From Acutalibacteraceae bacterium (GTDB lineage: Bacteria > Bacillota > Clostridia > Oscillospirales > Acutalibacteraceae), in the NCBI GenBank assembly GCA_045536235.1, contig JAZSND010000036.1:18890-82889 (forward strand): a stretch of 64,000 nt of DNA. The letters are read 5' to 3'. The translations under genes and the position numbers were made by a program. Below the pieces are notes generated by a model. That model did not search any database, was not told the origin of the DNA, and saw only the letters and a program-made list of their open reading frames with translations. Positions 4,428 through 35,046 of this stretch are shown piece by piece (position 1 is the stretch's first letter; each line of letters begins with the position of its first letter).

Positions 4428-4468
4428 TGCAATGCAACACAAAATGCGCAAGGCAGGTTTAATCAAGG
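4428..4468 (+). repeat. 41-bp perfect direct repeat, copy 1 (inside candidate oriC)
   Basis: TGCAATGCAACACAAAATGCGCAAGGCAGGTTTAATCAAGG is identical to 4521-4561. Confidence 0.95.
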
Positions 4469-4520
4469 TGGAAAGTATGTTGCCCGGTAACTCTATGCAG
4501 ATTAAAAAAATAAGTAAAAC

Positions 4521-4561
4521 TGCAATGCAACACAAAATGCGCAAGGCAGGTTTAATCAAGG
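4521..4561 (+). repeat. 41-bp perfect direct repeat, copy 2 (inside candidate oriC)
   Basis: It is identical to 4428-4468, with a 93-bp period. Similarity continues imperfectly for about 20 more nt (GGAAA.TAT..GCCCGGTA). Confidence 0.95.
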
Positions 4562-4865
4562 CGGAAAATATATGCCCGGTAGCTTTACGGGAAAAAAGAA
4601 CTTTTTTAAGTCTTTATTAATTATACATAAATTAATATATCACAGTTTTTAATATTTTGAAAGATTAAATTTAAAAAAATTTAAATATCATAATCAATAT
4701 ATAATATCAGACAAAAAGACAGCCTTTTCAGACTGCCTTTTAATGAAAAATATTTTTAATAACAATCTCTTTTAAACCACACCGTTGATGTATCATTTAA
4801 AATTCGGATAATACATTTAAAAAGGCGTCATCAGTGTGATTTTAGCTCCGTCAGCGGATGCAACG

Positions 4866-6170: not shown

Positions 6171-6522
6171 ATTTTTCTCCATATCTTTCTTTTTTCTGTC
6201 GCTGCCAAAGCTGTTGCAGCCTATATTAAGGTAATATTCATTAAAAGGTTTATTATTACGTCCGTAAATACCATAAGAGTATATCATATTTCAATCTCCT
6301 TTTCAACTTTTGAAAATATGGGAAGTTTTCAACAACATCTTGGTTTGGTGCTAAAAAGTCCTCCCATAAATAGTGCTTACAGGCACTTTTTTTCCCCGAA
6401 AAGGTTGAATTTTTTGCAAAAAAAATAAAAAAAATAAATTTGGGTAATTTTTGGTTGTTTTTACCAAATAAAATTGCCCAAAAAGCAGCGGAAAAGATTT
6501 TCAAAAAAATTTGAAATAACTA

Positions 6523-6566: not shown

Positions 6567-6643
6567 GGCGGCATAGCTCAGTTGGCTAGAGCATTCGGTT
6601 CATACCCGGAGTGTCGTAGGTTCAAGTCCCACTGCCGCTACCA
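6567..6643 (+). tRNA. tRNA-Met (anticodon CAT), elongator type; a lysidine-modified tRNA-Ile2 cannot be excluded
   Basis: I folded the cloverleaf by hand. The acceptor stem is GGCGGCA/TGCCGCT, the anticodon loop is TTCATAC (CAT at 6601-6603), the T-loop is TTCAAGT, and CCA is encoded. There is one A-C mismatch in the T stem. It lacks the three G-C pairs of initiator tRNA. Confidence 0.85.
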
Positions 6644-6671: not shown

Positions 6672-6746
6672 GGCCCGGTGGTCAAGCGGTCAAGACACCG
6701 CCCTTTCACGGCGGTAACACGAGTTCGATTCTCGTCCGGGTCACCA
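6672..6746 (+). tRNA. tRNA-Glu (anticodon TTC)
   Basis: GGCCCGGTGGTCAAGCGGTCAAGACACCGCCCTTTCACGGCGGTAACACGAGTTCGATTCTCGTCCGGGTCACCA. This is the classic Bacillota tRNA-Glu sequence, with CCA encoded. Confidence 0.93.
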
Positions 6747-9103: not shown

Positions 9104-9474
9104 AAAACTTTCTCCTTACGGGTTGAATTAATGTTTACTGTAATGTACATCATATCACAACATCATTCAGACTGTAAATATATCTGAACGCAAAATTCAG
9201 GATAAATTATATAACATTTACGTTTATTAACATATTTTATCTGATACTTTTAAATATTTCTGAAAAATTATTTATAAGGTCAACACAAATCAGGCGGCAC
9301 TCATTTTTGTAACAGACGGATTTATATGTACTGAATTAAAGAAAAAAATTAGGTTAATAAGTAGACTTTTTAAAATAAAAGTGATAATATTATAATGATC
9401 ATTTATATTTAAACATATATAAAAATAAAAATCCAGTGTTGGAAAACTGGGTTTATTTGTAAAAGTGGTGAATT

Positions 9475-10698
9475 ATGAAGTTGAAGAGTTCAAATAAATC
9501 AGTAATGGAAAAAACGGGTAAAGACAGGCTGTTTGATTCAGCTTGTTATCTTGTACCCTTTGTAAGCCTCGGCGGATATCTTCTTGCCTTAATACTTAAA
9601 GGTGAGATAACATCTGCAGCCGGTTACTATCTGATACATTATCTTTATGCGTACGACCACGGATTTGTTGCCCGCGGATTAGTCGGTGAAGTAATCAGTT
9701 GGTTTTATGAAAATGTAACAGATGAGATTACCCGGAATATTGTTATTCTTTTTTCTTTCCTGTTAATGCTCTCTGCTTCACTTTGTATCGGAAAAGCCCT
9801 GACAAAAGTAAAAAATAATCCTACACTTTTTTTAATAACAGCAGCGCTTTCAGTTTTACTGTGTATTTTACCTGCTTCATTCCGTCACTATTATATTGAT
9901 ATTAAGTTGGATAAATTACTCTGGGCGTTAACCTTGTTTGCTGTTTTGTTTGTTGACAGAAAGTACGGTATATGGCTGGTGCCCGTTTTTTGTATAATTG
10001 CGACGCTTGTAAACCCCGTATTTTTATTTTGCAGTATGATACTGATTGCAATCATTCTGCTTCAAAAATTTTACGATGAAAAATTTGCTGTAAAAAACGG
10101 CATTGTATGTGCGGTTTCATATATCACGATGATAGTTCTGGGAATCTATGCACTGGCTTCGGAAAAATATCTTGGCTTTGAAACCCCGAATGAGATGGTA
10201 GACTATTATTTTTCCAGATACGCAGGAGTGCTTGAAGAGGGAGTATACGATGCCTTTGTGACTGAATGGCTGTATGACTACTTTGAGCCGATGAAAAAAA
10301 TCATATCAATGTCCTTCGAATATTATTTTATCAGATGGGGCAACTGGATTGTATGCCTACTTGACCTGATTATCCTTATGATTCCGACTTACACAATTAC
10401 AGTTTTGTTCTGGAAAAAATGTATGTCGGCTGCTGATAACAGGTTTCAGAAATTCATTTTTTTCCTTTGTCTGATTTCGCCTGCTGTTATTATTTTACCC
10501 ATAATCTTCTCATGGGAAACAAGCAAGTATTTTTATAGCAACTTAATGGTTCAGCTTTCTTTGATGATATACTTCACCGTTACTGAGAATTCAGCAGTTG
10601 TCAGCTGCATAAAAAGTTGTATTAATTGGGTAAAGAACCATATAATTGTTTCAGCGTGTGCCGTGATGTACTTTGCATCAATTATTGTTACGAAATAA
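9475..10698 (+). CDS. polytopic integral membrane protein, unknown family (GT-C/polymerase-like by context only)
   Basis: It is 407 aa with about 10-12 hydrophobic segments. It is the first gene of a tightly packed plus-strand operon. I recognise no motif. Confidence 0.6.
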   Translation: MKLKSSNKSVMEKTGKDRLFDSACYLVPFVSLGGYLLALILKGEITSAAGYYLIHYLYAYDHGFVARGLVGEVISWFYENVTDEITRNIVILFSFLLMLSASLCIGKALTKVKNNPTLFLITAALSVLLCILPASFRHYYIDIKLDKLLWALTLFAVLFVDRKYGIWLVPVFCIIATLVNPVFLFCSMILIAIILLQKFYDEKFAVKNGIVCAVSYITMIVLGIYALASEKYLGFETPNEMVDYYFSRYAGVLEEGVYDAFVTEWLYDYFEPMKKIISMSFEYYFIRWGNWIVCLLDLIILMIPTYTITVLFWKKCMSAADNRFQKFIFFLCLISPAVIILPIIFSWETSKYFYSNLMVQLSLMIYFTVTENSAVVSCIKSCINWVKNHIIVSACAVMYFASIIVTK

Positions 10699-10714
10699 AT
10701 CGGGAGTTTACGGT

Positions 10715-11842
10715 ATGAAAAAGATTTTTAACAAAACTAACGGTGAAATTCTTATATACTTCTTGATTATTTTTTTTACTGGATTTTCCTGTCTGTCCGG
10801 AAGCTGTCTGGATATAAGCACTTTCGATATAAAAATAAACTTTTCTACTGAACTGTTATGGTCTGTTATCAGCATTCTGGTTTTCAGCGCAGCGAGTGCG
10901 GTTTTTGTGCAAAAGCTTATCGCAACCGACAGCGGCATATTGGTTTTACCCGTTCTGCTGCTTTTTTTGGATCCTCTGTTCAGAAATACTTTTACAATCA
11001 GCTCTTATCTTCCTCTGTTGGTTGTTGAGTTTGTTCTCATATTTTATCTGGCTGCGGGTAAATCGGTCAGTGTAAAACTTATACTGACGGCTTTGTTTGC
11101 CTTTGCCTCTTCGCTGGTGTTTTTTACAGCAGCATACAGCTACGTTCCGCTTGTCTTTTGCGTTTACTTACTCAGCGTCATAACGGAAGAAAACAAAAAT
11201 ATCAAAAGTATCAGCAATAAAAACAAACAAAATAAATTAAAAGATAAAGCTAAATCTAAAAAGCAGAAAAGTACAGTCAATGCAGGTGAGCTTTTATCGC
11301 TGATTATTATTGCGGTTACTGTTATTGCGGTAATGCTTAACCGCAGGTTTTCTCAGCAGATTGCTCAGTTGTACTATCCGAAAACGTACAATACAGAAAT
11401 AAGGACAGTTCACGATTGGGTAAGACTTTTATTACCGAGTTTTCCTTATGTTTTTATCCTCTTTGTCTTTATCGGAGAATATCTGACTGATAAATTTAAG
11501 GAGAAAAAATTTACGCTCAGTTCTGTCTTTAGAAAAGCAGGTTTTATTTTTGGCATAGTTGCTTTCTATGTGGTAATACTTTTCGGTATTTTCAAGATGA
11601 ATTCCTTTGAGAGCTATTCGTTGGTAAATTTAATTGTTCCGCTGACTTTGATTTTTGTTTATTTAAAAGACAAAGTCCCTGCAGGAAAAGCTCTTAAAGA
11701 AATTTATGCATGGATAAATGAACACAAAGCGATTACTGCTGTTGTAACCGTTGTGTGGATTGTTGTTACACAATTTTTATTCTACAGTTCTCAGAACACT
11801 CTGTGGGGAGAGATACTTTCAATAGCGGGTAGATTACTGTAA
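10715..11842 (+). CDS. polytopic integral membrane protein, unknown family, with a Lys-rich cytoplasmic loop
   Basis: I moved the start to ATG 10715 (MKKIFNK...) because GGGAG lies 8 nt upstream. It has multiple TM segments and a central loop KNIKSISNKNKQNKLKDKAKSKKQKS. Confidence 0.6.
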   Translation: MKKIFNKTNGEILIYFLIIFFTGFSCLSGSCLDISTFDIKINFSTELLWSVISILVFSAASAVFVQKLIATDSGILVLPVLLLFLDPLFRNTFTISSYLPLLVVEFVLIFYLAAGKSVSVKLILTALFAFASSLVFFTAAYSYVPLVFCVYLLSVITEENKNIKSISNKNKQNKLKDKAKSKKQKSTVNAGELLSLIIIAVTVIAVMLNRRFSQQIAQLYYPKTYNTEIRTVHDWVRLLLPSFPYVFILFVFIGEYLTDKFKEKKFTLSSVFRKAGFIFGIVAFYVVILFGIFKMNSFESYSLVNLIVPLTLIFVYLKDKVPAGKALKEIYAWINEHKAITAVVTVVWIVVTQFLFYSSQNTLWGEILSIAGRLL

Positions 11843-11843
11843 T

Positions 11844-12566
11844 ATGGAATACACTTCACTGACCGTTTTTGTTTTGGCAAACAATGAAACGGATTTGCTC
11901 AGAGCCACGATTGATGCAATAAAAAACAACTGTGCCGATGGCGATTTGGAAAAGATAATAATAGTTGCCAAAAGCGACAGCTGTCCGGCCAGTAATGAAG
12001 CAAGAAAGCTGGCGGAAAGCGATGAAAAAATTGAGCTTTATGTTCAGAAATCGACTACTGCACAGCTGTGTCTTGCGGAATTGCCTGCTTTGGCAACAGG
12101 TTCACATTTTGTAATTATGGCTGCTGATATGGAGATGGATCCTGGTAATCTTTCTGCTTTTATACAAAAAGCCAAAGAACATCCGCGACGCATAATCTGC
12201 GCGGCAAAGTGGCTGCCCGAATCAACAGTTATCGGATACGGTCTGTTTCACTCCGTGTGCAGCAGGACGATGAACAGATTTATCAGTCTGCTTTTTCAGA
12301 AGAAGGTTTTTGATCCCTTTTCAATTTATCAGATTTATCCTGTATCGTTGTACAAAAGCATGAACTTCGACAAGCCCGAAAATTTTCTGTATGAGTATAC
12401 ACTTAAACCGCTTTATCTCGGCGAAGAATATGAGGAGATCCCCACAGTATATCAAAAGAGAAAATCGGGTAAATCAAACTTTAAAATTTTTACACTCTGC
12501 AGCGTAGCTATAAGATTTATTCTGACGGGAATCAGAATACGTTTCAATTTACAGGAGAAAAAATGA
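11844..12566 (+). CDS. family 2 glycosyltransferase, Dpm1/GtrB-like fold with divergent acidic motifs
   Basis: It has the GT2 layout: LTVFVLANNE, VIMAADMEMDP, ...EIPTVYQKRKSGKSNF. The usual VDDGS and DAD motifs read VAKSDS and AAD. It starts 2 nt after the upstream stop. Confidence 0.7.
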   Translation: MEYTSLTVFVLANNETDLLRATIDAIKNNCADGDLEKIIIVAKSDSCPASNEARKLAESDEKIELYVQKSTTAQLCLAELPALATGSHFVIMAADMEMDPGNLSAFIQKAKEHPRRIICAAKWLPESTVIGYGLFHSVCSRTMNRFISLLFQKKVFDPFSIYQIYPVSLYKSMNFDKPENFLYEYTLKPLYLGEEYEEIPTVYQKRKSGKSNFKIFTLCSVAIRFILTGIRIRFNLQEKK

Positions 12567-15016
12567 ATTTTACCGATGACACAATAATAGTTTTGACTGT
12601 CGGCAGTTTCGCTCAGAAGCAGCTGTGCGAAAAGCTTATTCCGGAACTGGATTTATCGGGAATGAGGATTGAGGTTATATCCGACGATGAATTCGGAAAC
12701 AGAATAGGCTCGGGCGGTGCTGTTTTGAATGTCATCGGCAGATATTATGAAACAAACAAAAAGCTTATTGTTATAAATTCAGGCGGATTTTCAAAAAGGA
12801 CATTCAGCTGTGCGGTCAAGGGTAAGGCGTTTGCCCGCACCCTGTGCGGTAATAAACCCGTAACGCTTTTAGAGCATATCATTGACAGTACAGTCAGATT
12901 AACAAAGGCTTTTTCTAAGGGTATAATCCTTTGCTGCAGCGATATTTTAACAGATACGCGTCAAGTGAATATCAGCTTTGACAACAATATAGGGTTCGGT
13001 GTGCTTTCTGACATCGGTACGGGTGTCAATCACGGAGTAATGCTTAAAAACGTCAATCACGAGCTGACAGATTTTCTGCATAAATGCGATGAAAAAATTC
13101 TGAGAAGTTATGCTGAAAAAAACAACGGCAAGGTAATCGTCGATACGGGTATGGTTTTTCTGTGCGATGAATTTGCAGAAAAGCTTTACCGTCTTATCAG
13201 ACAGAATAAGCTGCTTGACTTTATCAGAGAGAACGGAATTGAGCTGAATTTTTATTCTGATGTTTTTCCGTTGCTCAGTAAAAACTTAACTGCAGAGCAG
13301 TATTTTTCACAGATGCCGCAGGACAGCCAACACACTGAACTGAGAAAGATTCTTTACAGCAGCCTCAGTGACTGTTCTCTGAAAGTATGCGTGCTTGAAA
13401 ACCAGAGATTTATGCATTTCGGAACAACCAGACAGCTGCTTGAAAATGTTATTGATATTTCTGATGATTCACCCTATCTGTCAATCGGCAGTGTTACAGA
13501 TGACAGTGTATCGGTTGGCAGCAATACCGTGCTTGACGGTGCTCTGCTTAAGGGGAAGATTGAAACAGGTGCTGACTGTCTGATAAATGATATCGCTCTG
13601 AACGGAGAATTCTGTATACCCGACGGTAAGGTTGTCTGCGGAATAAAGCTGACTGACGGTTCGTTTGTCACCGTGATTACGGATACAGACGAAAATCCCA
13701 AAGATATGTATGACGGTTATGTGCTCTGGGATTTGCCGAGGTTTTATAAAGGCAGAAGCTTTTCCGATTCGCTGAAGAAATTCTTTCGGCAGGCGGATGA
13801 AGAAAAATTCAGTCTGAAGTACTGTACTGAAAATGCTGATTTTAATTTTTTCTATAATCATACCGAATATCTTAAAGGAATAAAAGAAAGCGGTTTTAAT
13901 GAAGAATATTCAAATATAAGAAACAGAATTATTTCTGACTTTTTTGATAATCAAAAAAAGTTTCAGCAGCTGCACTGTGTGAAAGACCGTGTTGAGGTTT
14001 CAATGCCCTTGCGTGTAAACCTCTGCGGAACGTGGACGGATGCAATGCCCTACTGCATCAAAAACGGCGGTACGGTTATCAATGCCGCTGTGACAGTGAA
14101 CGGTGAATTGCCTGTTCGGGTTACTCTTGAAAAGCTCGATAATGAGATTATCGAATTTATAAGCGACGGCAGCTGCACCGAATTCAGCTTTGATGAAACG
14201 CAGGCTTATGACGAGCTTTCTGAGTTTAATCTGCACAGAGTTGTTCTGCAAACCGTCGGTATAACCGGTTACGGTCAGCTCCCGTGCGGTTTGCGGCTGA
14301 GCACGCAGGTCTGCGGAACAGACAAGGGTTCGGGACTTGGCACAAGCAGTATTTTGCTGACAGCCTGCTTTAAAGCTTTTTCGGAAATGTTCGGTCTTGA
14401 CTGTCAGAACAGTGAAATTGTAAAAATGGTTTTTGTTGCAGAACAACTTATGAAAACAGGCGGAGGCTGGCAGGACCAGGTCGGTGGTCTGTATCCCGGG
14501 GTCAAGCTGATTTCGTCTGAACCCGGCCTGCAGCAGAAGGTGAAGGTGAAAAGCATAGAATTGCCGGACAGTTTCAAAAAGCTGTTTTCTCAGTCAGCTG
14601 TGCTGCTGCCGACGGGTCAGCGTCACTTCGGCAGATTTATTGTTACGGATGTTGCAAACCGTTACCTTGACGGCAATCCCGGAACTGTGTCGGCATTAAA
14701 CGAAATAAAAGAACTGAACAGCAGACTACTGGAGTCCATTGAGAATGAAGACACAGCTGCTTTCTATGAGTGCATTAACAGCCATATGCAGCTGCTGACA
14801 AGGATTTCTCCGGCTGTTACAAATACGGTAATCCGGAATATTATCGGAAAATGTGCCTGTATGACTGAGGCTGTTTCAATCTGCGGTGCAGGTGCGGGAG
14901 GATATCTCCTGGCTTTTCTGAAAAAGGGTGTAACTCTTTCTGAATTCAGAAGCTTTATAGCTCTCAATTTTCCGCAGATAAAAAGTGATGTTTTAAAAAC
15001 AGATATTTTTATATAA
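12563..15016 (+). CDS. fkp: bifunctional L-fucokinase / fucose-1-phosphate guanylyltransferase-like protein (Fkp family)
   Basis: The N-terminal half has fucose-1-P guanylyltransferase-type motifs: GSGGAVLNV, NSGGFSKR, HGVM, FMHFGTTRQLL. The C-terminal half is a GHMP kinase: PLRVNLCGTWTDAMPY, GSGLGTSS, KTGGGWQDQVGG, CGAGAGGYL. It is colinear with Bacteroides Fkp as I recall that sequence. It overlaps the GT2 stop by 4 nt (ATGA). Confidence 0.85.
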   Translation: MNFTDDTIIVLTVGSFAQKQLCEKLIPELDLSGMRIEVISDDEFGNRIGSGGAVLNVIGRYYETNKKLIVINSGGFSKRTFSCAVKGKAFARTLCGNKPVTLLEHIIDSTVRLTKAFSKGIILCCSDILTDTRQVNISFDNNIGFGVLSDIGTGVNHGVMLKNVNHELTDFLHKCDEKILRSYAEKNNGKVIVDTGMVFLCDEFAEKLYRLIRQNKLLDFIRENGIELNFYSDVFPLLSKNLTAEQYFSQMPQDSQHTELRKILYSSLSDCSLKVCVLENQRFMHFGTTRQLLENVIDISDDSPYLSIGSVTDDSVSVGSNTVLDGALLKGKIETGADCLINDIALNGEFCIPDGKVVCGIKLTDGSFVTVITDTDENPKDMYDGYVLWDLPRFYKGRSFSDSLKKFFRQADEEKFSLKYCTENADFNFFYNHTEYLKGIKESGFNEEYSNIRNRIISDFFDNQKKFQQLHCVKDRVEVSMPLRVNLCGTWTDAMPYCIKNGGTVINAAVTVNGELPVRVTLEKLDNEIIEFISDGSCTEFSFDETQAYDELSEFNLHRVVLQTVGITGYGQLPCGLRLSTQVCGTDKGSGLGTSSILLTACFKAFSEMFGLDCQNSEIVKMVFVAEQLMKTGGGWQDQVGGLYPGVKLISSEPGLQQKVKVKSIELPDSFKKLFSQSAVLLPTGQRHFGRFIVTDVANRYLDGNPGTVSALNEIKELNSRLLESIENEDTAAFYECINSHMQLLTRISPAVTNTVIRNIIGKCACMTEAVSICGAGAGGYLLAFLKKGVTLSEFRSFIALNFPQIKSDVLKTDIFI

Positions 15017-15104
15017 ACAGTTTAAAAATATCGGAAAGGAAGATACTCTGTGCGATGGAAAATAAAATTCCGTATGTACTATTCTGTATCATCGGTTGAT
15101 ATTA

Positions 15105-17024
15105 ATGGATAAGAAAAATATTTACATTGTTCAGGCGGGCTGCCTTTACGGAAACACCTATTATTTACCATACGCGGCAGGTATGCTGGCAGCCTTTGCT
15201 TTTGACAACAAAATTATACAGGAACACTATGAACTCAAACGGATAATATACAGTCTGGAAGATATTGATGAAAGCATAAACAGTCTGGAAAATCCCGCAT
15301 TTGTAGGCTTTTCGAATTCAATATGGAATTATAACTATAATCTGGTTTATGCCGAAAAATTAAAGAAAGCCTATCCCGACTGTGTTATTGAGTTTGGCGG
15401 ACACCATATTCCGCCGACAACACAGTACCTTGACGATTACAGCTTTATAGATTTGCTTATTCACCGCAAAGGTGAAGAGGCTTTCCGCGATGTTCTGCTG
15501 GCACTTATTGATAACTCCGATTTGTCAGCGATTCCGAATATTTCTTACCGCTTGTCCGACGGAAAAGCGGTACAGACCCCCGAAAGAAAAATTACCGTTT
15601 CGGATTATCCGTCCCCGTATTTAAACGGCTTTTTCGATGATATTATCAAAAACGGCAAGTATCCGTTTTCCTGTGTTATCGAAACCAACAGAGGCTGTCC
15701 GTATAACTGCAGCTACTGTGACTGGGGCGAGCTCAATTCAAAGGTGCGCCTTTTTCCGCTGGAAAAGGTAATGGCAGAGCTTGAGTGGATGGCTGAGCAC
15801 AAAATGGAATTTGTGTACTGTGTCGATGCCAATTTCGGTATGTTTGAACGCGATGAAATTATCGCTCAGAAAATTGTTGAGCTGAAAGAAACAAAGGGCT
15901 ATCCTAACAGACTGCAGGTTTCCTATGCAAAGAGTGAGCAGGACAGAGTTTTCCGAATCAATAAAATGCTTGCCGATCACGGGATAGGAAAAGGTGCGAC
16001 TCTTGCTCTGCAGAGCCTTGAGCCTGACGTGCTTAAAAATGTCGGGCGTGCAAATATCAGCAAAGAGGAATACGCCAGATCAATTTCACGCTACAGAGAT
16101 GCGGGTATTTCGACCTACACAGAGCTGATCCTCGGTTTACCGGGTGAAACATACGAAAGCTTTACGCGCGGTCTTTGCGAAATTCTTGAACTCGGTCAGC
16201 ACAGCTCAGTCAGTGCGTATTACTGCGAGCTGTTGCCGAATTCCGCATTAAGTACACCCGAATATATTGAAAAGTTTAAAATCAGAACGGTATCAACTCA
16301 TCTCAATCAGTACCATTGCGAGGTTATGGACGATGTTCTGTCAGGCAATTCAACCATTATTGTAGGGACAGAAACGCTGTGTACAGATGAATGGATACAC
16401 GCCAACGAGTTTTCAGTCTGCGTACAGAGTCTGCACCATTTCGGAATTATGCAATGCCTTGCAATGTATATCCGTCACGAGTGCGGAGTTTCATATTTCG
16501 AATTCTATACCGAAATTTTCAGGTACATCTTTACAGAAACTGCTTTCTGTAAAGCGGTTTTCCGGGATGTTACGTCAATCCTCAGAAACTTTGTTGACGG
16601 AAAAGGCGGACTGACATATCAGAACGATGTTTTCGGAAAAATAACTTATCCGCTGGAAGAAGCTGTATTTCTGATTTTCCAATATAATTCCAAGCTGTTT
16701 TATGAAGAGATGGAAAGATTTGTCCGCAGATATATCAAAGACGAAAAACTTCTCTATCAGCTTTTCAAATATCAGCGTGCGGTTGTTCTAAGACCCGGAA
16801 TGAACGAATTCACCAAGTGTTTTGACTACGACTTTTCCGAATACTTCGATTCTATACTCAGAAATTCATATACCCCGTTAAAGAAAAAAAGAGTAAAATA
16901 CAAGTTCTCAACCGTATTCGCTACAGACAGCTGGGAAGAATATGCGAGGGAAATAATCTGGTACGGCAGAAGAAACAGCAGAATGATGTTTTCGAGTGCT
17001 CCCAACCGTATAGAAAAAATCTGA
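15105..17024 (+). CDS. B12-binding-domain radical SAM enzyme (class B), paralog 1
   Basis: The N-terminal region is Rossmann-like and B12-type (VGFSNSIWNYNYN...FGGHHIPP). The CxxxCxxC motif CPYNCSYC is at 15696-15719. It also has ELILGLPGETYESF, GQH and a C-terminal EEYAREIIWYGRRN. I prefer ATG 15105; the ORF-track TTG 15096 is possible. Confidence 0.85.
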   Translation: MDKKNIYIVQAGCLYGNTYYLPYAAGMLAAFAFDNKIIQEHYELKRIIYSLEDIDESINSLENPAFVGFSNSIWNYNYNLVYAEKLKKAYPDCVIEFGGHHIPPTTQYLDDYSFIDLLIHRKGEEAFRDVLLALIDNSDLSAIPNISYRLSDGKAVQTPERKITVSDYPSPYLNGFFDDIIKNGKYPFSCVIETNRGCPYNCSYCDWGELNSKVRLFPLEKVMAELEWMAEHKMEFVYCVDANFGMFERDEIIAQKIVELKETKGYPNRLQVSYAKSEQDRVFRINKMLADHGIGKGATLALQSLEPDVLKNVGRANISKEEYARSISRYRDAGISTYTELILGLPGETYESFTRGLCEILELGQHSSVSAYYCELLPNSALSTPEYIEKFKIRTVSTHLNQYHCEVMDDVLSGNSTIIVGTETLCTDEWIHANEFSVCVQSLHHFGIMQCLAMYIRHECGVSYFEFYTEIFRYIFTETAFCKAVFRDVTSILRNFVDGKGGLTYQNDVFGKITYPLEEAVFLIFQYNSKLFYEEMERFVRRYIKDEKLLYQLFKYQRAVVLRPGMNEFTKCFDYDFSEYFDSILRNSYTPLKKKRVKYKFSTVFATDSWEEYAREIIWYGRRNSRMMFSSAPNRIEKI

Positions 17025-17038
17025 TTTCAACATAAAGT

Positions 17039-18952
17039 GTGGTGATAAATCTGAAAAGAATATATATATCTCAGCCCAATTCACAGTACGGCAAATCCAT
17101 TTATTTTCCATATGCCGCAGGCTCGCTTATTGCTTATGCCTTTGATGATGAGAGAATAAAAAGTGCATACGATTTCAAAGGCTTTGTCTACAAAAAAACA
17201 GATATAGACGCTATCGTTTCAGATTTGGATTCACCGTTTGTTTTTGGCTTTTCCTGTTATATCTGGAACTACGAATACAACAAGGCTCTTGCAAGGGCTG
17301 TCAAGTCAGCTTTCCCCGATTGCAGAATAGTTTTCGGCGGTCATCAGGTCAATGAAAACAGCGATATTGTACGGGAGGAGTTTGTTGATTATATCCTGCT
17401 CGGTGAGGGCGAAGAAAGTTTCCGCAAGCTGCTTTTGTGTTTTTGCGGCGAGGAGAAAATTGAAAATATACCCGATCTTCTTTATCGCAAAGACAACGCT
17501 TTTGTCAGGACAGACTCAGTCTGCCCGGATATTCCGCACAGGGTTTCACCTTATGTCAACGGGTATTTTGACAGCCTTGTTCAGGCCGAGGAGCTTGCTT
17601 TTTCAGCAATTCTTGAAACCAACAGAGGCTGTCCGAATAAATGTGCATTCTGTGATTGGGGAAACATAAAATCCAGAATCACGCTGTACGATCTGAAGAC
17701 CGTTAAGGCAGAAATCGACTGGATGGCTGAAAACAGAATTGAATACTGCTACTGTGCCGATTCAAACTTCGGTCTGTTTGAAAGAGATATGGAGGTTGTT
17801 GATTACCTGATACAAAAGCACAGGGAAACAGGCTATCCTCAGAAGTTTCAGGCAACATATTCTAAGAACAATCCCGGAACAGTTTTCGCCATTACAAAAA
17901 AGCTCAACGAATCGGGAATGAGCAAGGGCGCCACGCTGTCATTCCAGTCAATGCAGCAGGAGGTGCTGGACAATATCTACAGAAAAAATATGCCGCTGTC
18001 AAGCTTTAAAGAGTTGATGTCGCTGTACAGCAAAAACGGAATTTCGGCATACTCGGAAATTATAATCGGTCTGCCGGGTGAATCCTACGAAAGCTTCAAG
18101 GACGGTATTGAACAGCTGCTTGAGTCAGGTCAGCATATGTCCATCAATTTCTTTAACTGTGAGCTTCTGGTGAATTCCGTTATGAACGACCCTTACTACG
18201 TGGAAAAGCACAGAATAAAATATGCTCTGACCGAGCTTCACCAATATCACATAGAGCCGAAAGAAAACGAAATACCTGAGCTTTCGCGCATTGTTGTTTC
18301 AACATCAACGATGTCAGAAAACGATTGGATGCAGTGCAATATTCTGTCCGTTTTTGTACGTGCTTTTCATAATCTCGGCTTGCTTCAGGCTGTTGCGATT
18401 TATCTTTATTTTGAAAAGAATATTCCTTATACAGACTTTTACTGTTCCCTCATCAGGTGGTCGGAGTCAAAGCCCGATTCTGTCTGCGGTCAGATTTATT
18501 TATGGCTCAGGGCTAAGTATGAAGAGGTTCTGAGGAATGAAGGCTCGCTGACCGGCGTTGAACCCGATTTCGGACTGCTGACGTGGCCGCTTGATGAAGC
18601 CGCTTTCCTTAAAGCGATAAAGGATATCAAAAGATTTTATGAGGAAACGGCAGAGTTTATCAGACCTTATTTTGATGATAAAGAAGTATATAACGGACTC
18701 ATGCTGTACCAGACGTCTGTTGTCAAGAGCCCGTACAACTCAGAAGCTGATTTGCTTCTGAGCCATGACTGGTATGCGTATTTTAAATCGGTGTATACGA
18801 ACTGTTACGCTCCGCTTGTCAAAAAAACGAACAGAATATTTATCGACGCTTCCGATATTCCGTCTGACCCTGAAGAATACGCAAAGCAGGTAATATGGTT
18901 CGGCAGAAAAGGCGGACAGAACATCATTACAAATATAAATTATATTAATTGA
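17039..18952 (+). CDS. B12-binding-domain radical SAM enzyme (class B), paralog 2
   Basis: It has the same architecture. CPNKCAFC is at 17630-17653. The C-terminal motif is EEYAKQVIWFGRKG. It uses a GTG start 15 nt after the paralog 1 stop. Confidence 0.85.
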   Translation: MVINLKRIYISQPNSQYGKSIYFPYAAGSLIAYAFDDERIKSAYDFKGFVYKKTDIDAIVSDLDSPFVFGFSCYIWNYEYNKALARAVKSAFPDCRIVFGGHQVNENSDIVREEFVDYILLGEGEESFRKLLLCFCGEEKIENIPDLLYRKDNAFVRTDSVCPDIPHRVSPYVNGYFDSLVQAEELAFSAILETNRGCPNKCAFCDWGNIKSRITLYDLKTVKAEIDWMAENRIEYCYCADSNFGLFERDMEVVDYLIQKHRETGYPQKFQATYSKNNPGTVFAITKKLNESGMSKGATLSFQSMQQEVLDNIYRKNMPLSSFKELMSLYSKNGISAYSEIIIGLPGESYESFKDGIEQLLESGQHMSINFFNCELLVNSVMNDPYYVEKHRIKYALTELHQYHIEPKENEIPELSRIVVSTSTMSENDWMQCNILSVFVRAFHNLGLLQAVAIYLYFEKNIPYTDFYCSLIRWSESKPDSVCGQIYLWLRAKYEEVLRNEGSLTGVEPDFGLLTWPLDEAAFLKAIKDIKRFYEETAEFIRPYFDDKEVYNGLMLYQTSVVKSPYNSEADLLLSHDWYAYFKSVYTNCYAPLVKKTNRIFIDASDIPSDPEEYAKQVIWFGRKGGQNIITNINYIN

Positions 18953-18959
18953 CAGACTT

Positions 18960-20882
18960 GTGGTGAGCATTTTGGAAAAGAAAAAAATTTACTTTGTTCA
19001 ACCGAATACAATGCTGGGCAATTCCGTTTACTTCCCCTATGCTGTCGGTGTATTGGCTTCCTATGCCATGCAGTTTGAGGATATTGAGCAGAATTATGAA
19101 ATCGGTGGAATATTTTTCAAAGAGGATTCCGAGGAGGATGTTTTCCGCTGTATCGAAAAGCCTTTCATAGTCGGTTTTTCAAACTATTTCTGGAACTATA
19201 AATACAATCTGAAAATTGCAGAAAAAGTCAAGGAAAAATATCCCGGCTGCACGGTGATTTTCGGCGGACACCAGATTCCGCGAAGCACAGAGTTTCTTGA
19301 AAAATATCCGTTTATTGATTTGCTGATATTCGGTGAAGGCGAAATGCCATTTGTGAATATTCTGCGTGCTTTGGATTCACACGGAAAGGTTTCCGGTATC
19401 TGCAATGTTGCGTACAGAAACGAGTCGGGCGAGATTGTGAAAACGCCTGACAAATACGAGGGTGTTGAAGATTATCCCTCACCCTATCTTACGGGTATAT
19501 TTGACAGGCTGTGCAATGTTCCTGACGGCATTGAGTTTAACGCACAGCTTGAAACCAACAGAGGATGTCCGTATCACTGTTCGTTCTGTGACTGGTGCGA
19601 TTACGATATTCCTATGCGGAAATTCCCGATGGAACGGGTTAAAAAAGACCTTGAGTGGATTTCGGCACATAAAATTTCTTACTGTATGTGTGTTGATTCG
19701 AATTTCGGTCTTTTTGAGCGTGATGAGGAAATTGCCCGCTTTGCAGCAGAGCTGAAAACAAAAAACGGCTATCCCGACAAATTCGGTGCCTGCTTTGCAA
19801 AAAACAAAACCGACCGTATATTCAGAATAAACAAGCTTCTCAATGATGTCGGAATGAGCAAAGGTGTTTCGCTTGCATTCCAGAGTATGTCAGAAGATGT
19901 TCTGAAAAATATTTCACGCAGAAACATGAACAAGGACAGTCTGTCAGACCAGCTTGAGATGTATCACAAGGCAGGTATTCCCACCTACACGGAGCTGATT
20001 CTCGGTCTGCCGGGTGAAACGCTGGAGAGCTTTTCAAAGGGCATATGTGAGCTTCTTGAAAGAGGTCAGCACGACTCAATCAACGTTTTCCGCTGCGAGG
20101 TTTATCCGAATTCTACCCTTGCCGACAAAGCGTATATGAAAAAGTTCGGCATAAAAACTGCAATAAACAAGCTCAACATAAATCACTGCAAGATTTCCAA
20201 CGCAGTTTTTGCAGGCGGACTTGAATATATCGTCGAAACCTCTACGATGACAGCAAAGGAGCTTGTAAAGGCAACTGTTTTTTCAGCGTGTATCCAGAGC
20301 ATACACTGTCACGGACTGTTACAGTGCTTTGCAATATATATGCACAATTCTATGGGTGTCAGCTATTACGATTTTTATGAGGCGTTCACAGCTTACTTTG
20401 CCGGAAGGGACGGAGTAATCGGCGATACTGTCCGCAGAATCAGTAAATGTATTGAGTCAACCTCTGAGGGTGCGACGGATATGTCGTATATCAATCCCGA
20501 ATTCGGAGATATAACATGGCCTTATGAAGAGGCAATGCTTCTTGATTATATTTATGAGCTTGACAAATTCTACGGTGAGGCGAAAGAGTTTATAATGTCA
20601 TTCGGCATTGACCCGAAGGTGTTTGACGAGCTTATGCTTTATCAGAAAAATATGATAGTTGTACCGGGTGTCAACGATGTTACACTTGATTTTGAGTATG
20701 ACTGGAATTCATATTTTGACGGTATACTTTCCAACAGAGAAGTATGCCTTGAGAAAAGACCGACTGTTGTCAGATTCTTTGCAGAGCGTGTTCCCGACAG
20801 CTGGAAAGATTACGCCCGTGAAATAATCTGGTACGGCAGAAGAAACAAAAAAACAATCAGAAAAACTGAAGTAATTCAATAG
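18960..20882 (+). CDS. B12-binding-domain radical SAM enzyme (class B), paralog 3
   Basis: It has the same architecture. CPYHCSFC is at 19566-19589. The C-terminal motif is KDYAREIIWYGRRN. It uses a GTG start 8 nt after the paralog 2 stop. Confidence 0.85.
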   Translation: MVSILEKKKIYFVQPNTMLGNSVYFPYAVGVLASYAMQFEDIEQNYEIGGIFFKEDSEEDVFRCIEKPFIVGFSNYFWNYKYNLKIAEKVKEKYPGCTVIFGGHQIPRSTEFLEKYPFIDLLIFGEGEMPFVNILRALDSHGKVSGICNVAYRNESGEIVKTPDKYEGVEDYPSPYLTGIFDRLCNVPDGIEFNAQLETNRGCPYHCSFCDWCDYDIPMRKFPMERVKKDLEWISAHKISYCMCVDSNFGLFERDEEIARFAAELKTKNGYPDKFGACFAKNKTDRIFRINKLLNDVGMSKGVSLAFQSMSEDVLKNISRRNMNKDSLSDQLEMYHKAGIPTYTELILGLPGETLESFSKGICELLERGQHDSINVFRCEVYPNSTLADKAYMKKFGIKTAINKLNINHCKISNAVFAGGLEYIVETSTMTAKELVKATVFSACIQSIHCHGLLQCFAIYMHNSMGVSYYDFYEAFTAYFAGRDGVIGDTVRRISKCIESTSEGATDMSYINPEFGDITWPYEEAMLLDYIYELDKFYGEAKEFIMSFGIDPKVFDELMLYQKNMIVVPGVNDVTLDFEYDWNSYFDGILSNREVCLEKRPTVVRFFAERVPDSWKDYAREIIWYGRRNKKTIRKTEVIQ

Positions 20883-20900
20883 GATAAGGAGGGACCTGAA

Positions 20901-22820
20901 ATGAAGAATGTTTATTTTGTTCAACCCAACAATTCTCTTTCGGGTTCTCTTTTTTTACCTTATGCTGTCGGTTCGCTTGCAGCATATTCTTTTCAGCACG
21001 AAGAGATAAAAAGCAGTTATAATCTGTGCGAATTTATTTTCACAAAGGATACTGTTGAAAAAGCGCTCGAAAAAATAAAAGACCCGTACATAACCGGCTT
21101 TTCCTGCTATATGTGGAATGTTGAATACAATCTTATGCTTGCGGAAGAAATCAAGAAGAAATATCCGCAGTCAATCATTGTTTTCGGCGGTCCGCAGGTT
21201 CCTAACGACACGCAGTATCTGCAGGAATACGGCTTTATTGATATACTGATACACGGCGAAGGTGAAATTGCTTTTTATGAATTTCTGAGAAGTGCTGACG
21301 GCGGAAACGATCCGGGCAGTATCTTTAACATATCCTACAGAAAAGACGGAGAGATTTTAAAGACAGCGCAAAAATCTGTTTGCGATTTAAGCGGCTTTCC
21401 GTCCCCTTATTCGGCGGGACTGTTTGACAGCATTATTGACAATCCCGAATATGAGGGGATACAGTTTGATGCAATCATAGAAACCAACAGAGGCTGTCCG
21501 TACAGATGCATTTACTGCTGTTGGGCAGGCAACAAGGATATTTTCCGCCAGTTCCCTGAGAAGAGAATCAAAGAGGATTTGGATTGGATAGCAAAAAATA
21601 AAATCGCTTTTTGTATTTGTGCGGATTCAAATTTCGGTATACTTGACCGTGATGAAAAAATAGCGGAATATATCGTTGAGCTTAAACGTACTTACGGCTA
21701 TCCGCAGAAATTTGAAACAACGGCGGCAAAGAATAAAGACAGTCTTGTATTCAGAATTAATCAGAAGCTTGATTCCGAAAACCTGAACCGCGGTATATCC
21801 GTAGCGGTGCAGAGTATGTCAGAAAAAGTTCTGGAAATAATAGGCAGAAAAAACATATCGGTCGACAACCTTGCCGAACAGCTGGACAAATACAGAAAAG
21901 CGGGAATGTACACCTACACCGATATTATTCTGGGACTTCCGGGTGAAACGTTCGATAGCTTCTGCGAAGGGCTGTTCAGTGTTATTGAAGCAGGTCAGCA
22001 TTATTCCATTAACATAAACCGCTGTGAATTTTTGCCGAACTCGCTTATGTATACAAAGGAATATGTTGACAAATACAAAATAAAAACAATCCGTTCCTAT
22101 CTGTGCCAGAACCACAGCAGAAAGGTTGAGAATCTGCGGTTCGGTTCACGTTCGGAGCTTGTTGTTGAAACGGATACAATGAGCAAAGCTGACTGGAGAA
22201 GAGCGCTCAGGCTGTCTGTGTGTGTGCAGAGCTTTCACTGTATGGGGCTGCTGCGCTTCATCGCAGTTTATCTGAGAAAAGCACGGAAAATATCGTACAG
22301 GGAATTCTATTTCAATTTGTTTGAATGGATAGAAAACGAAAGCATATTTATAAAGCAAACGTTGGATTATGTCTGCGCAAGCATAGATGATTTTCTGTAC
22401 GGAAACGGAAATCTTTCTTTTTCTGACAGCAGGTTCGGAGAAATTTACTGGCCGTTTGATGAGGCACTGTTCCTCTGCCTTGCGTGTGAGGCGGATAACT
22501 TCTACAGAGAAATCAGCAGCTTTTTGTCGGTCGCTTTGGATCAGAACGATGAAATGATTTCTGATTTGTACAGGTATCAGAAGAATATAATTCTTTTGCC
22601 CGACCGGAGCGAAAATACATTCAGCCTGCGCTATGACTGGCATAAATATTTTGATGATTTGTATGATACGGAGGTCACCGTTCCGGCCGAACGAAGACTT
22701 GTAATCAGAACAGAAAAAAGCGAATTAAAATCGTGGGAGGATTACGCTCGTTACATTGTCTGGTACGGCAGACGTGACGATAAAACCGTCAACAAAAATA
22801 TCACTTGCAGTTACGGATAA
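20901..22820 (+). CDS. B12-binding-domain radical SAM enzyme (class B), paralog 4
   Basis: It has the same architecture. CPYRCIYC is at 21495-21518. The C-terminal motif is EDYARYIVWYGRRD. A strong AAGGAGG lies upstream of ATG 20901. Confidence 0.87.
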   Translation: MKNVYFVQPNNSLSGSLFLPYAVGSLAAYSFQHEEIKSSYNLCEFIFTKDTVEKALEKIKDPYITGFSCYMWNVEYNLMLAEEIKKKYPQSIIVFGGPQVPNDTQYLQEYGFIDILIHGEGEIAFYEFLRSADGGNDPGSIFNISYRKDGEILKTAQKSVCDLSGFPSPYSAGLFDSIIDNPEYEGIQFDAIIETNRGCPYRCIYCCWAGNKDIFRQFPEKRIKEDLDWIAKNKIAFCICADSNFGILDRDEKIAEYIVELKRTYGYPQKFETTAAKNKDSLVFRINQKLDSENLNRGISVAVQSMSEKVLEIIGRKNISVDNLAEQLDKYRKAGMYTYTDIILGLPGETFDSFCEGLFSVIEAGQHYSININRCEFLPNSLMYTKEYVDKYKIKTIRSYLCQNHSRKVENLRFGSRSELVVETDTMSKADWRRALRLSVCVQSFHCMGLLRFIAVYLRKARKISYREFYFNLFEWIENESIFIKQTLDYVCASIDDFLYGNGNLSFSDSRFGEIYWPFDEALFLCLACEADNFYREISSFLSVALDQNDEMISDLYRYQKNIILLPDRSENTFSLRYDWHKYFDDLYDTEVTVPAERRLVIRTEKSELKSWEDYARYIVWYGRRDDKTVNKNITCSYG

Positions 22821-22937: not shown

Positions 22938-24107
22938 TCAACATACGGCATTGGGTACAACGTCGCGTTGTTCTGTCTGCGCAAGGCGGTTGAGCATTTC
23001 AAGGTAAAGGCTGAGCGTTTTGTTTCTATCGGCAAAAAGGCCTATCGGTTTTCCGTGGTCGCCGCTGAGTGTCGGCATTGCGTGCCAGATACCCGGCTCA
23101 AGCTCATCAGCTGCGCTGTAATCCTTATGAGGTTCGTCAATGGGATATTTTGCGGATTCAACGTCAATCAGTCCGTCGTTTTCTATGTAGAACTTAGCCT
23201 CATCTTCAGGCAGTGTTTTTGCGTATTTAAGCATCAGGCCGGATATAAGCGTGAGAATCGGAATTTTAGATACGGGCCTGTTATTCTGCACCATGTTGTA
23301 CTGATATGAAAAATAATAGATGTCCGGCACGATTTCAATACGGTCATTAAGCTCCTTTGAGCCCTGAACGGAAATATCGTAATCAATGCTGTCCGTATTT
23401 GTATAATATTTGTGTGCAACGTAAACAATGGGATCAGCATCTTTTTTATCCGTCATATTTGTAAGCCTTAAACGTTCCATGTGAAAATCTGTATATTTTT
23501 TGCCGACGGAAGTTCTGGACATTAAACCTGCATAAATAAGTGAAATAAATTTAGTCGGATTGATAAGTCCTGTTTTGTCAACAACTACGTGTGCGCGTGT
23601 ACCGCTTAAGGGAGAACAGATTGCGGTGATACTCGCAATAAGCCCCGTTTGTCCGCCCTTGAAAAGCGGAGAAACATCGTCGCCTGCAGCCTCAACCTCT
23701 TCTGGAGCGCCGTAAACCATGAGGTGACTGAGCATACGTATACATATGCCGCCGAAGGAATGACCGATAAGGTGAACCTTGCGGTTTTTGCTCCAGCCGT
23801 CAAAAAGCGGCTTTTCGTATGTACGTCCGAAACGCTCGTGGCCGAATTTTCTTGAATGGGCAACTCCGTAGTCAACACGTGTGCCCGTCAGCTGCGCATA
23901 AAGCTCACACGCCTGGTCCCATGCAGGTGACATCGGGCCGACAGAGCCGCAGTAACATTCGCAGCCGTATTCACGCAGCCTGTCAGTAAGGCTGCCTGTA
24001 GTTGCACCCCAGTAGGGAGCTTTTTTGTTTATACCCTCATTATCGCCCCAGCCGTACATGCCGTGGACAAAAACTACCGGATATTTCGGTGTGCTGCTGT
24101 AATCCAT
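22938..24107 (-). CDS. alpha/beta-hydrolase triacylglycerol lipase/esterase
   Basis: It has YPVVFVHGMYGWG (oxyanion region) and the nucleophile elbow GHSFGG. It is 389 aa with no signal peptide. Confidence 0.7.
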   Translation of the reverse strand: MDYSSTPKYPVVFVHGMYGWGDNEGINKKAPYWGATTGSLTDRLREYGCECYCGSVGPMSPAWDQACELYAQLTGTRVDYGVAHSRKFGHERFGRTYEKPLFDGWSKNRKVHLIGHSFGGICIRMLSHLMVYGAPEEVEAAGDDVSPLFKGGQTGLIASITAICSPLSGTRAHVVVDKTGLINPTKFISLIYAGLMSRTSVGKKYTDFHMERLRLTNMTDKKDADPIVYVAHKYYTNTDSIDYDISVQGSKELNDRIEIVPDIYYFSYQYNMVQNNRPVSKIPILTLISGLMLKYAKTLPEDEAKFYIENDGLIDVESAKYPIDEPHKDYSAADELEPGIWHAMPTLSGDHGKPIGLFADRNKTLSLYLEMLNRLAQTEQRDVVPNAVC

Positions 24108-32645: not shown

Positions 32646-32666
32646 AAACTCAAGGAGGTAATTATA

Positions 32667-33881: not shown

Positions 33882-33895
33882 GGAGGTAGATTAAA

Positions 33896-35011: not shown

Positions 35012-35046
35012 TTATCAGGATTTTATTATAAAGAAGGAGAAAAGCT

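Follow-up and report, generated by a model that had tools for sequence, protein, structure and literature searches.

What would a bacterium do with four consecutive genes for cobalamin-dependent radical enzymes, and on what substrate would those enzymes act? The question is raised by a 64,000-nucleotide (nt) stretch of DNA from an Acutalibacteraceae bacterium (GenBank assembly GCA_045536235.1, contig JAZSND010000036.1, positions 18,890 to 82,889), which was analyzed at its full length and is here called the window. The four genes, rS1 to rS4, code for paralogous radical S-adenosylmethionine (SAM) enzymes. An initial annotation of this array had assigned the enzymes to class B, the cobalamin-dependent radical SAM enzymes, and had implied that they serve an antibiotic pathway or that of a ribosomally synthesized and post-translationally modified peptide (RiPP). 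Our analysis confirms its observation, finds its enzymology largely right and does not support the implied type of pathway. We propose, with a probability of roughly one half, that the enzymes carry out stepwise radical C-methylation of a nucleotide- or lipid-linked sugar before its export to the cell envelope. Methylation of a surface sugar is likelier than that of an antibiotic or modified peptide because the array belongs to a conserved operon with genes for sugar activation and lipid-carrier export.

Four paralogous enzymes related to TokK and CysS

The four genes follow one another on the forward strand:

15105-17024, + strand: rS1, cobalamin-dependent radical SAM enzyme, TokK/CysS-like; 639 amino acids (aa) from the ATG at 15105
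17039-18952, + strand: rS2, cobalamin-dependent radical SAM enzyme, paralog 2; 637 aa
18960-20882, + strand: rS3, cobalamin-dependent radical SAM enzyme, paralog 3; 640 aa
20901-22820, + strand: rS4, cobalamin-dependent radical SAM enzyme, paralog 4; 639 aa

These are the four consecutive plus-strand open reading frames (ORFs) of about 640 aa that had been described (637 to 642 aa, from 15096 or 15105 to 22820). The ORF of rS1 opens with a TTG at 15096 (642 aa), and the identical database protein has 639 aa, that is, it starts at ATG 15105. The genes are spaced 7 to 18 nt apart, and rS4 is preceded by a good ribosome-binding site (AGGAGG). Their products are soluble proteins without a membrane segment that align end to end with 118 invariant columns; rS2, rS3 and rS4 are, respectively, 38%, 43% and 39% identical to rS1. 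All nine sequence blocks listed for them earlier are found, with LILGLPGET replacing IILGLPGE in paralogs 1 and 3, and the first Cys of the CxxxCxxC motif (in ETNRGCPxxCxxC) is encoded exactly at nt 15696, 17630, 19566 and 21495. Beyond the three cluster Cys, two other Cys are invariant in the four proteins, one of them present also in TokK, and the reported lack of a SPASM/twitch cluster stands.

Assignment to class B is borne out by Pfam domains and by alignment with TokK and CysS. The Radical_SAM domain (PF04055) scores above threshold in all four proteins (40.6 to 55.9 bits, cutoff 29.5). A B12-binding domain is also detected (PF02310, E 6e-5 to 2e-8, over the gathering score in rS2 alone and 0.4 to 9 bits short of it in the others), and residues 5 to 190 align with the cobalamin Rossmann domains of TokK and CysS. 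In a sequence search against the Protein Data Bank (PDB), these two proteins are the nearest solved structures: TokK (PDB 7KDX; E 9e-90), which with ThnK represents the sequential C6 methylases of carbapenem biosynthesis, and CysS (PDB 9N1B; E 1.6e-49), the iterative methylase of cystobactamid biosynthesis. A family profile built from 18 sequences matches TokK at E 1e-142 and CysS at E 1e-81. Its alignment is unbroken over TokK residues 12 to 610 of 681, a span that comprises the cobalamin Rossmann domain, the radical SAM barrel and most of the C-terminal substrate-binding domain. Because the E values against solved homologs range from 1e-50 to 1e-142, chance is not an issue.

Two Trp residues distinguish TokK, ThnK and CysS from other class B methylases: one beneath the cobalt (Trp76 in TokK, Trp75 in CysS) and one in the active site (Trp215 and Trp206; TokK and CysS papers). 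The first, which is the W of GFSxxxWN, is invariant in the four paralogs and in 61 of 61 orthologs. The second, found two residues past the third cluster Cys in C(D/C)W, is likewise invariant in the paralogs and in 61 of 61 orthologs. The order of domains is that of CysS, and the continuous alignment to TokK residue 610 shows that a TokK-type C-terminal domain is present. We regard rS1 to rS4 as almost certainly class B radical SAM enzymes of the TokK/CysS clade. By analogy with these relatives, radical transfer of a methyl group from methylcobalamin to an sp3 carbon, possibly repeated, would be expected, and methylation is probably the chemistry of at least most of the paralogs.

Within the clade, the four proteins lie outside every characterized orthologous group. 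They are 30 to 32% identical to TokK and 26 to 28% identical to CysS, and TokK and CysS are 29% identical to each other. The top curated family for all four is NCBIfam NF033712 (KedN5 family methylcobalamin-dependent C-methyltransferase), matched over model positions 1 to 400 of 624 with 225 to 257 bits. Because this score is far below the cutoff of 700 bits and the first ~400 residues alone match, we did not file the proteins under that family. They do not reach the cutoffs of the RiPP models TIGR03975 (45 to 78 bits, cutoff 282) and ApyD; weak NCBIfam matches include HpnJ, HpnR, ladderane-lipid radical SAM and RiPP C-methyltransferase models. Nor do they resemble carbapenem C6 methylases at two diagnostic positions: TokK Arg280 is replaced by Q, Q, G and E in rS1 to rS4, and Tyr410 by N, H, N and C; no carbapenem genes are found in the window. 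A neighbor-joining tree rooted on CysS puts TokK near the root; the tree is crude, carries no support values and was used for identity and cluster counts alone. The kind of enzyme is known, and what is new is this clade-level group of relatives and the pathway context in which it is found.

A WYGRR C-terminal domain had been put forward as a possible subfamily marker. This applies to the last ~65 residues (EYAR..IIWYGRR), which are clade-specific and cannot be aligned to TokK, and not to the bulk of the domain, which is homologous to that of TokK. The tail follows the pattern YD[FW]..YF ... [ED]YA[RK]..[IV]W[YF]GR[RK] over the last ~69 columns. A profile of these 69 columns had two matches among PDB sequences at E<=10, both at chance level and to unrelated complex I subunits. 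When 1.84 billion representatives were searched with a profile built from the tails of rS1 to rS4, 229 proteins matched at E<=1e-3, in each case at the very C-terminal end of a ~640-aa protein or of a fragment of one; the strict motif occurs in 141 of 255 full-length family members sampled. Because it has 229 matches, all C-terminal, and no PDB relative, the tail can be taken as the marker of a narrow clade. At a similar distance from the C-terminus, Asp607 and His617 of CysS and Tyr652 of TokK line the substrate cavity (TokK and CysS papers), and the WYGRR segment may do the same here.

The duplications that produced the array are old, as had been supposed. Orthologs of a given paralog, found in 10 to 21 other genomes, are 60 to 80% identical, as compared with 38 to 43% between paralogs. 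Because every window paralog has its own 60 to 80% ortholog, the duplications predate these species, and all copies have been maintained. We aligned 21, 17, 13 and 10 distinct orthologs of rS1, rS2, rS3 and rS4 (n = 61) together with TokK. Whereas 67 columns are invariant in all 61 orthologs, 12 columns alone are at least 85% fixed inside every orthogroup and take at least three states among the orthogroups. Coincidences with published substrate contacts occur at the column of TokK Arg280 and CysS Trp271, at that of TokK Tyr410 (both with the residues given above) and at that of CysS Trp188 (S, S, N and D in rS1 to rS4). Arg280 anchors the carbapenam carboxylate, and the R280Q variant is nearly dead (TokK paper); Trp271 is described as a substrate-binding "gate," and Trp188 as a direct substrate contact (CysS paper). 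Given about a dozen published contacts and ~600 aligned columns, a Poisson estimate places the expectation of three or more coincidences at ~0.2%, a figure that is supportive, not formal, since the overlap was partly noticed post hoc. Because the residues at published contact columns are orthogroup-specific, the sequences indicate that the four enzymes differ in the substrates they bind or in the register in which they bind a common scaffold. The idea that the paralogs serve distinct steps or substrates is therefore probably correct.

Operon partners and related loci

The array forms the distal half of a group of eight same-strand genes (9475-22820) whose gaps range from -26 to +88 nt and which constitute one operon. 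The elements upstream of rS1 are as follows:

9369-9396, + strand: promoter-like site TTTAAA-16 nt-TATAAT; consensus match at 10 of 12 positions, nothing beyond consensus
9475-10698, + strand: memA, polytopic membrane protein, putative GT-C-type glycosyltransferase; 407-aa ORF
10673-11842, + strand: memB, second polytopic membrane protein, with a Lys-rich loop; 389-aa ORF
11844-12566, + strand: family 2 glycosyltransferase (GT2), DPMS/ArnC/GtrB-like; 240 aa, PF00535 at E 4.5e-7
12563-15016, + strand: Fkp-like bifunctional enzyme, N-terminal sugar-1-phosphate nucleotidyltransferase and C-terminal GHMP kinase; 817 aa

The promoter-like site sits in an AT-rich gap of 370 nt upstream of the operon. 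Searches with Rfam at the gathering threshold revealed no cobalamin or other riboswitch upstream of the operon or inside it, and two tRNAs elsewhere in the window.

Two of these genes have products that can be linked to sugar activation and transfer. The Fkp-like enzyme matches PF07959 (fucose-pyrophosphorylase type, E 6.5e-46) and PF00288, scores 232 bits (cutoff 721) with the NCBIfam fucokinase/fucose-1-phosphate guanylyltransferase model, and matches Bacteroides Fkp in the PDB at E 5.5e-34 across the kinase domain. The GT2 family is very divergent; 92 homologs were detected, all within this clade. The AlphaFold2 (AF2) model of the window protein has a predicted local distance difference test (pLDDT) score of 92.8, and its top 25 Foldseek matches in the PDB are all DPMS, ArnC or GtrB (E 1.6e-13 to 1.4e-8, template-modeling (TM) score 0.63 to 0.77). 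Among PDB sequences, the family profile matches DPMS (1.8e-7) and ArnC (7.5e-7) alone at E<1e-3. The fold is thus of the type that uses polyprenyl phosphate.

The membrane proteins are harder to assign. For memA, whose identical public-database protein starts 10 codons downstream (397 aa), we found no match in Pfam (E<=10), nor in the PDB with a single sequence or a profile. Homologs show a weak precomputed match to PF27463, "Rv1490," a family name that led to no functional literature. The AF2 model (pLDDT 89.5, predicted TM score 0.87) has as its highest-probability Foldseek matches in the PDB the GT-C enzymes STT3 (probability 0.99, E 0.04, TM score 0.40), PglB, ALG12, ALG3 and AftB; enzymes of this type use lipid-linked sugars. 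Because the match scores are weak, a GT-C-like enzyme is suggested at most. R67, G68 and E72 of memA are invariant and lie in the loop after the first transmembrane segment; the Lys-rich N-terminus suggests that this loop faces outward. The family PF27463 is named after the Mycobacterium tuberculosis membrane protein Rv1490, and the fold of memA, if GT-C-like, may hint at a role for that protein. The second membrane protein, memB, has no Pfam or NCBIfam match and no kinship to memA detectable by profile comparison; it may work together with memA or act as a flippase.

A scan of species-representative genomes revealed at least 579 relatives of the radical SAM family, and locus analyses were performed on 84 related loci, 78 of them nonredundant. 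The best 76 loci all come from Acutalibacteraceae, Oscillospiraceae or "Clostridia" metagenome-assembled genomes (MAGs) from ruminant, horse, other gut and digester samples. The 84 loci contain 336 family genes, which fall into 58 sub-clusters at ~55% identity. Counting full-length genes within 10 kb on either side in the 78 loci, we found one family gene in 23 loci, two in 5, three in 12, four in 16, five in 14, six in 5 and seven in 3. Arrays of this kind had been thought rare; in this clade, where 50 of the 78 loci have at least three copies, they are the rule. An extreme example, from a more distant organism (L005 to L008, all of this organism; L005:1-21938), is a 22-kb stretch running off both locus ends that has at least eight paralogs of ~645 aa, three B12 radical SAM genes of ~500 aa, a memA-like gene and a GT2 gene.

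The operon recurs with its paralogs in a nested fashion. The order memA-(memB)-GT2-Fkp-rS1-rS2-rS3-rS4 is found in L011, L012, L013, L025 and L029, and is partial or rearranged in ~10 further loci. Orthologs of rS1 occur in 21 loci, of rS2 in 18, of rS3 in 13 and of rS4 in 10, and the sets seen among related genomes are {1}, {1,2,3}, {1,2,4-like} and {1,2,3,4}. In the closest relative (L024, 80% identity), rS1 to rS3 are followed by the end of the operon, with no rS4, and in the minimal loci L001 and L009, rS1 is the sole paralog and adjoins Fkp. In two database proteins, P0334 (1271 aa) and P0348 (1283 aa), a pair of complete family enzymes is joined head to tail, each half having its own CxxxCxxC motif and WYGR tail, which suggests that paralogs act together on one substrate.

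Unsupervised clustering of neighboring genes identified GT2 in 54 of the 84 loci, memA-like genes in 35 and Fkp-like genes in 20. Less frequent are an NAD sugar epimerase/dehydratase (18 loci), a GHMP kinase (9), an NTP-transferase/HAD-phosphatase fusion (9), a cupin (8), an FAD oxidoreductase (8) and a 2Fe-2S fusion protein (8); the rarer ones are unrelated flanking genes. In loci that lack Fkp, nucleotide-sugar enzymes are again present, namely the GHMP kinase, the NTP-transferase/HAD-phosphatase fusion, the NAD sugar epimerase/dehydratase and the cupin. A gene for a membrane protein of 340 to 390 aa follows memA in L001, L024, L086 and L088.

In L062 (10257-11354) and seven other loci, the gene directly upstream of GT2 codes for a 365-aa protein that has a 2Fe-2S ferredoxin domain at its C-terminus. 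The window lacks this protein, which could serve the radical SAM/cobalamin enzymes as a dedicated source of electrons.

One might suppose that this neighborhood is fortuitous, and that the array acts on some other cytoplasmic metabolite or macromolecule unrelated to the upstream glycosylation genes. Some family members do stand alone or without GT2, memA or Fkp inside 10 kb (L033, L038 and L053), and there are the 23 single-copy loci, many of them on short contigs, however. Yet the genes are tightly packed on one strand, a GT2 homolog lies no more than 4 kb from family radical SAM genes in 50 of the 78 loci, and an Fkp ortholog directly precedes an rS1 ortholog in most Fkp-containing loci (for example, L001, L009 to L014, L016, L019, L020, L024, L025, L029 and L035). 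Reciprocal tests point the same way: the most distant GT2 homolog sits in a cluster of Fkp, GT2 and three B12 radical SAM genes, and the triad of memA, memB-like and Fkp genes recurs with B12 radical SAM genes. Outside this clade and these neighborhoods, the GT2 and memA families are all but absent. A chance association is hardly probable at all.

Nor do the neighbors favor tailoring of a diffusible secondary metabolite, whether a RiPP or an antibiotic of the aminoglycoside, carbapenem or cystobactamid kind. What speaks for such a product is that all characterized members of the TokK/ThnK/CysS/KedN5 clade tailor antibiotics, that GenK and GenD1 methylate the sugars of an aminoglycoside, and that RiPP C-methyltransferase models give the weak matches mentioned above. 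In the window, however, we found no precursor-peptide ORF, leader protease, nonribosomal peptide synthetase (NRPS), polyketide synthase (PKS), carbapenam synthase, aminocyclitol gene, resistance gene or exporter. A conserved small ORF is likewise missing from the operon, whose genes leave no room for one between them (gaps of 7 to 88 nt), and its flanks are housekeeping genes near oriC. No protease, exporter, NRPS or PKS family is present among the annotated recurrent neighbors of the 84 loci; the conserved partners are the lipid-carrier GT2 and membrane proteins. We consider a secondary metabolite highly unlikely. The RiPP or antibiotic reading was rejected after small ORFs, the intergenic space of the operon, and protease, exporter, NRPS or PKS neighbors in the 84 loci and the window had yielded nothing.

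The differences from TokK and CysS lie in context as well as in sequence. Whereas the carbapenem pathway needs one methylase, four to eight paralogs are present here, and in place of carbapenem genes the surroundings provide sugar activation and lipid-carrier transfer. As compared with CysS, the gate Trp271 and the contact Trp188 are not conserved, and there is no NRPS or carrier-protein context.

The paralogs might also differ in chemistry, such that one or two methylate and the others form C-S or C-C bonds, epimerize or rearrange, as ThnL does beside ThnK. Carbapenem clusters with three B12 radical SAM paralogs, one of which installs all the methyl groups, are a precedent (PMC9407657); the four window paralogs differ at substrate-contact columns, and their mutual identity of 38 to 43% makes them as distant as many functionally distinct class B enzymes. 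All four nevertheless retain the TokK/CysS pair of Trp residues and the three-domain layout, along with the 67 columns invariant in 61 orthologs. Array sizes that increase additively from one to at least eight fit repeated use of one chemistry, and so does a locus with a methyltransferase of another class. In this locus (L088:210-6388), the triad of memA, memB-like and Fkp genes is accompanied by a convergent gene for a class I SAM methyltransferase (465 aa), and the 9.4 kb covered are free of B12 radical SAM genes. This enzyme may be an alternative tailoring enzyme for the same module, and its presence in place of the B12 enzymes fits a view of the latter as methylating tailoring enzymes attached to a glycosylation core. 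On balance, mixed chemistry seems unlikely.

A proposed pathway for sugar C-methylation

We suggest that the operon is a self-contained sugar-decoration module for the cell envelope. The Fkp-like enzyme would phosphorylate a salvaged free sugar and then convert it into a nucleoside diphosphate (NDP)-sugar. At the cytoplasmic face of the membrane, GT2 would place the sugar onto a polyprenyl phosphate carrier, and memA, probably with memB, would move it to an extracytoplasmic acceptor. Since rS1 to rS4 are soluble and need SAM, a reduced Fe-S cluster and cob(I)alamin, they would have to act in the cytoplasm, on the nucleotide-linked or the lipid-linked sugar. That the substrate is an activated sugar has, in our estimate, about even odds.

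The expected reaction follows the ping-pong cycle of TokK and CysS, in which one SAM methylates cob(I)alamin and a second yields the 5'-deoxyadenosyl radical (TokK and CysS papers). The [4Fe-4S] cluster and SAM would generate this radical, which would take a hydrogen atom from an sp3 carbon that is not activated; this carbon would then receive the methyl group of methylcobalamin, which a second SAM would recharge. The paralogs would account for different regiospecific methylations or for successive ones. Because of the nested occurrence, in which rS1 is always present and usually directly follows Fkp, rS1 would perform the founding step and rS2 the second, and the steps of rS3 and rS4 would be optional. 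The pathway would end in a surface sugar that is multiply C-methylated or alkyl-extended.

Each half of this scheme has precedents. GenK and GenD1 of gentamicin biosynthesis are class B enzymes that perform C-methylation at unactivated carbons in the rings or side chains of sugars, and GenD1 is the precedent for C-methylation of a sugar carbon by a cobalamin radical SAM enzyme (PMC4340712). They differ from rS1 to rS4 in belonging to another class B subfamily, absent from the significant family matches of the window proteins, in acting on a free pseudo-oligosaccharide antibiotic intermediate, and in being single enzymes, not arrays.

The transfer half resembles three-component glycosylation systems (GtrA/GtrB/GtrC, ArnC/ArnE-F/ArnT, CsbB/GtcA/YfhO, and DPM synthase with GT-C mannosyltransferases) in having a GT2 of the DPMS/ArnC/GtrB fold and a polytopic, possibly GT-C-like, protein, and in being a stand-alone module without Wzx/Wzy or a priming transferase. 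Modification of a lipid-linked monosaccharide before export is known from the Arn and decaprenyl-phosphoarabinose pathways; in the former, ArnD modifies the lipid-linked sugar before flipping. The window module differs in that its GT2 is a shorter protein devoid of membrane helices, a small flippase like GtrA is not seen, the GT-C call is weakly supported, and a dedicated Fkp-like enzyme for sugar salvage is included. In the literature searched, we found no known three-component system that carries cobalamin radical SAM enzymes.

Given a lipid carrier, the methylated moiety could instead be a hydrocarbon, either of a membrane lipid or of the polyprenyl carrier, as for the hopanoid methylases HpnP and HpnR and the archaeal tetraether methylases; the role of Fkp, GT2 and memA would then be limited to providing the head group of a glycolipid. 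Methylation of lipid chains is a known activity of class B radical SAM enzymes (review PMC13459092), the weak matches to HpnJ, HpnR and ladderane-lipid radical SAM models are compatible with this, and two polytopic membrane proteins together with a lipid-carrier GT2 locate the pathway at the membrane. The recurrent neighbors are nucleotide-sugar enzymes, however, and not lipid-synthesis genes, and TokK and CysS, not lipid methylases, are by far the nearest homologs. In addition, rS1 to rS4 have no membrane segment, and the residues at their active-site columns are small and polar (S, N, D, Q, E and H) and would not be expected to line a hydrophobic tunnel. We regard methylation of a lipid as quite improbable. 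These alternatives overlap in part with sugar C-methylation and are not strictly exclusive of it.

Several observations weigh against sugar C-methylation, besides the post hoc element in the contact-column estimate. Every relative comes from an uncultured MAG. Both solved homologs, TokK and CysS, act on pantetheine-tethered small molecules and not on sugars (TokK and CysS papers), and paralogs in a single cluster need not all methylate, as is seen with ThnL, an enzyme of C-S bond formation (PMC9407657). The C-terminal membrane helices seen in DPMS, ArnC and GtrB are missing from GT2, which has a long amphipathic C-terminal helix at residues 215 to 239; its AAD(95)-M-E(97) aligns with the DAD of DPMS such that the second Asp alone is kept. 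For memA, no Foldseek match attains E<=1e-3 (E 0.04 or worse, TM score 0.27 to 0.41), and no PDB match exists at the sequence level. No function can be assigned to memB, and no flippase of the GtrA type is seen. In the minimal loci L001 and L009, a GT2 gene is missing from the vicinity. To our knowledge, no C-methylated envelope sugar has been described from these bacteria. Literature searches, of incomplete coverage, that combined radical SAM/cobalamin with fucokinase, undecaprenyl, polysaccharide or Acutalibacteraceae returned nothing relevant, and, with the same incomplete coverage, we came across no paper that deals with this clade or with cobalamin radical SAM enzymes as part of a lipid-carrier glycosylation module.

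A broader form of the proposal is more tentative. Arrays of one to at least eight TokK-like enzymes might successively methylate a sugar linked to a nucleotide or to polyprenyl phosphate, and so constitute an undescribed modification of envelope glycans in Oscillospirales gut bacteria. Alkyl extension could give ethyl, isopropyl or tert-butyl-like groups, and the GT-C-like enzyme would place the resulting sugars on the surface. The number and identity of the paralogs would then set a strain-specific "methylation code."

Surroundings of the operon and significance

The rest of the window consists of housekeeping genes, among them a glycogen operon, purL, alr and transporters. Upstream of the radical SAM operon, dnaN and dnaA lie within 3005-6287 on the minus strand and are followed by two tRNA genes (6567-6640 and 6672-6743, plus strand). 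The cumulative GC skew has its minimum at ~8 to 10 kb, which is consistent with a chromosomal replication origin right beside the operon. At 25-1017 (plus strand) is a gene for a 330-aa radical SAM protein (PF04055, E 1e-8) that has no B12 domain and is unrelated to the array. Downstream, 118 nt from the rS4 stop codon, a convergent lipase-like gene occupies 22938-24107 on the minus strand (PF24708 Lip_C, E 7e-57); it is not among the recurrent neighbor families of the related loci. The glycogen operon (29662-36471, plus strand) codes for a branching enzyme, a GT4 glycosyltransferase with an unusual insert, glgC-like and glgD-like nucleotidyltransferases, and glycogen synthase. An NAD epimerase/dehydratase gene (38103-39101) precedes a gene at 39128-41545 (plus strand) for an 805-aa protein, of which the N-terminal half is an MFS_2 sugar transporter and the C-terminal ~370 residues have no family match.

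All characterized members of the TokK/ThnK/CysS/KedN5 clade come from actinomycetes or myxobacteria. The enzymes described here belong to a large uncharacterized sister group that is confined to abundant, uncultured Clostridia of gut and digester and is tied to a lipid-carrier sugar-transfer module. If they do C-methylate envelope sugars, this would be new carbohydrate chemistry, and iterative B12 radical SAM alkylation would for the first time have a role beyond secondary metabolism. C-alkylated sugars would likely resist glycosidases and alter recognition by phages and by the host immune system, and the structure of the cell surface would be linked directly to the availability of vitamin B12 in the gut. 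The family would also offer a natural panel of regio-divergent sp3 C-H methylases, which are sought after in biocatalysis. The natural series of genomes with one, three or four paralogs makes the hypothesis directly testable.

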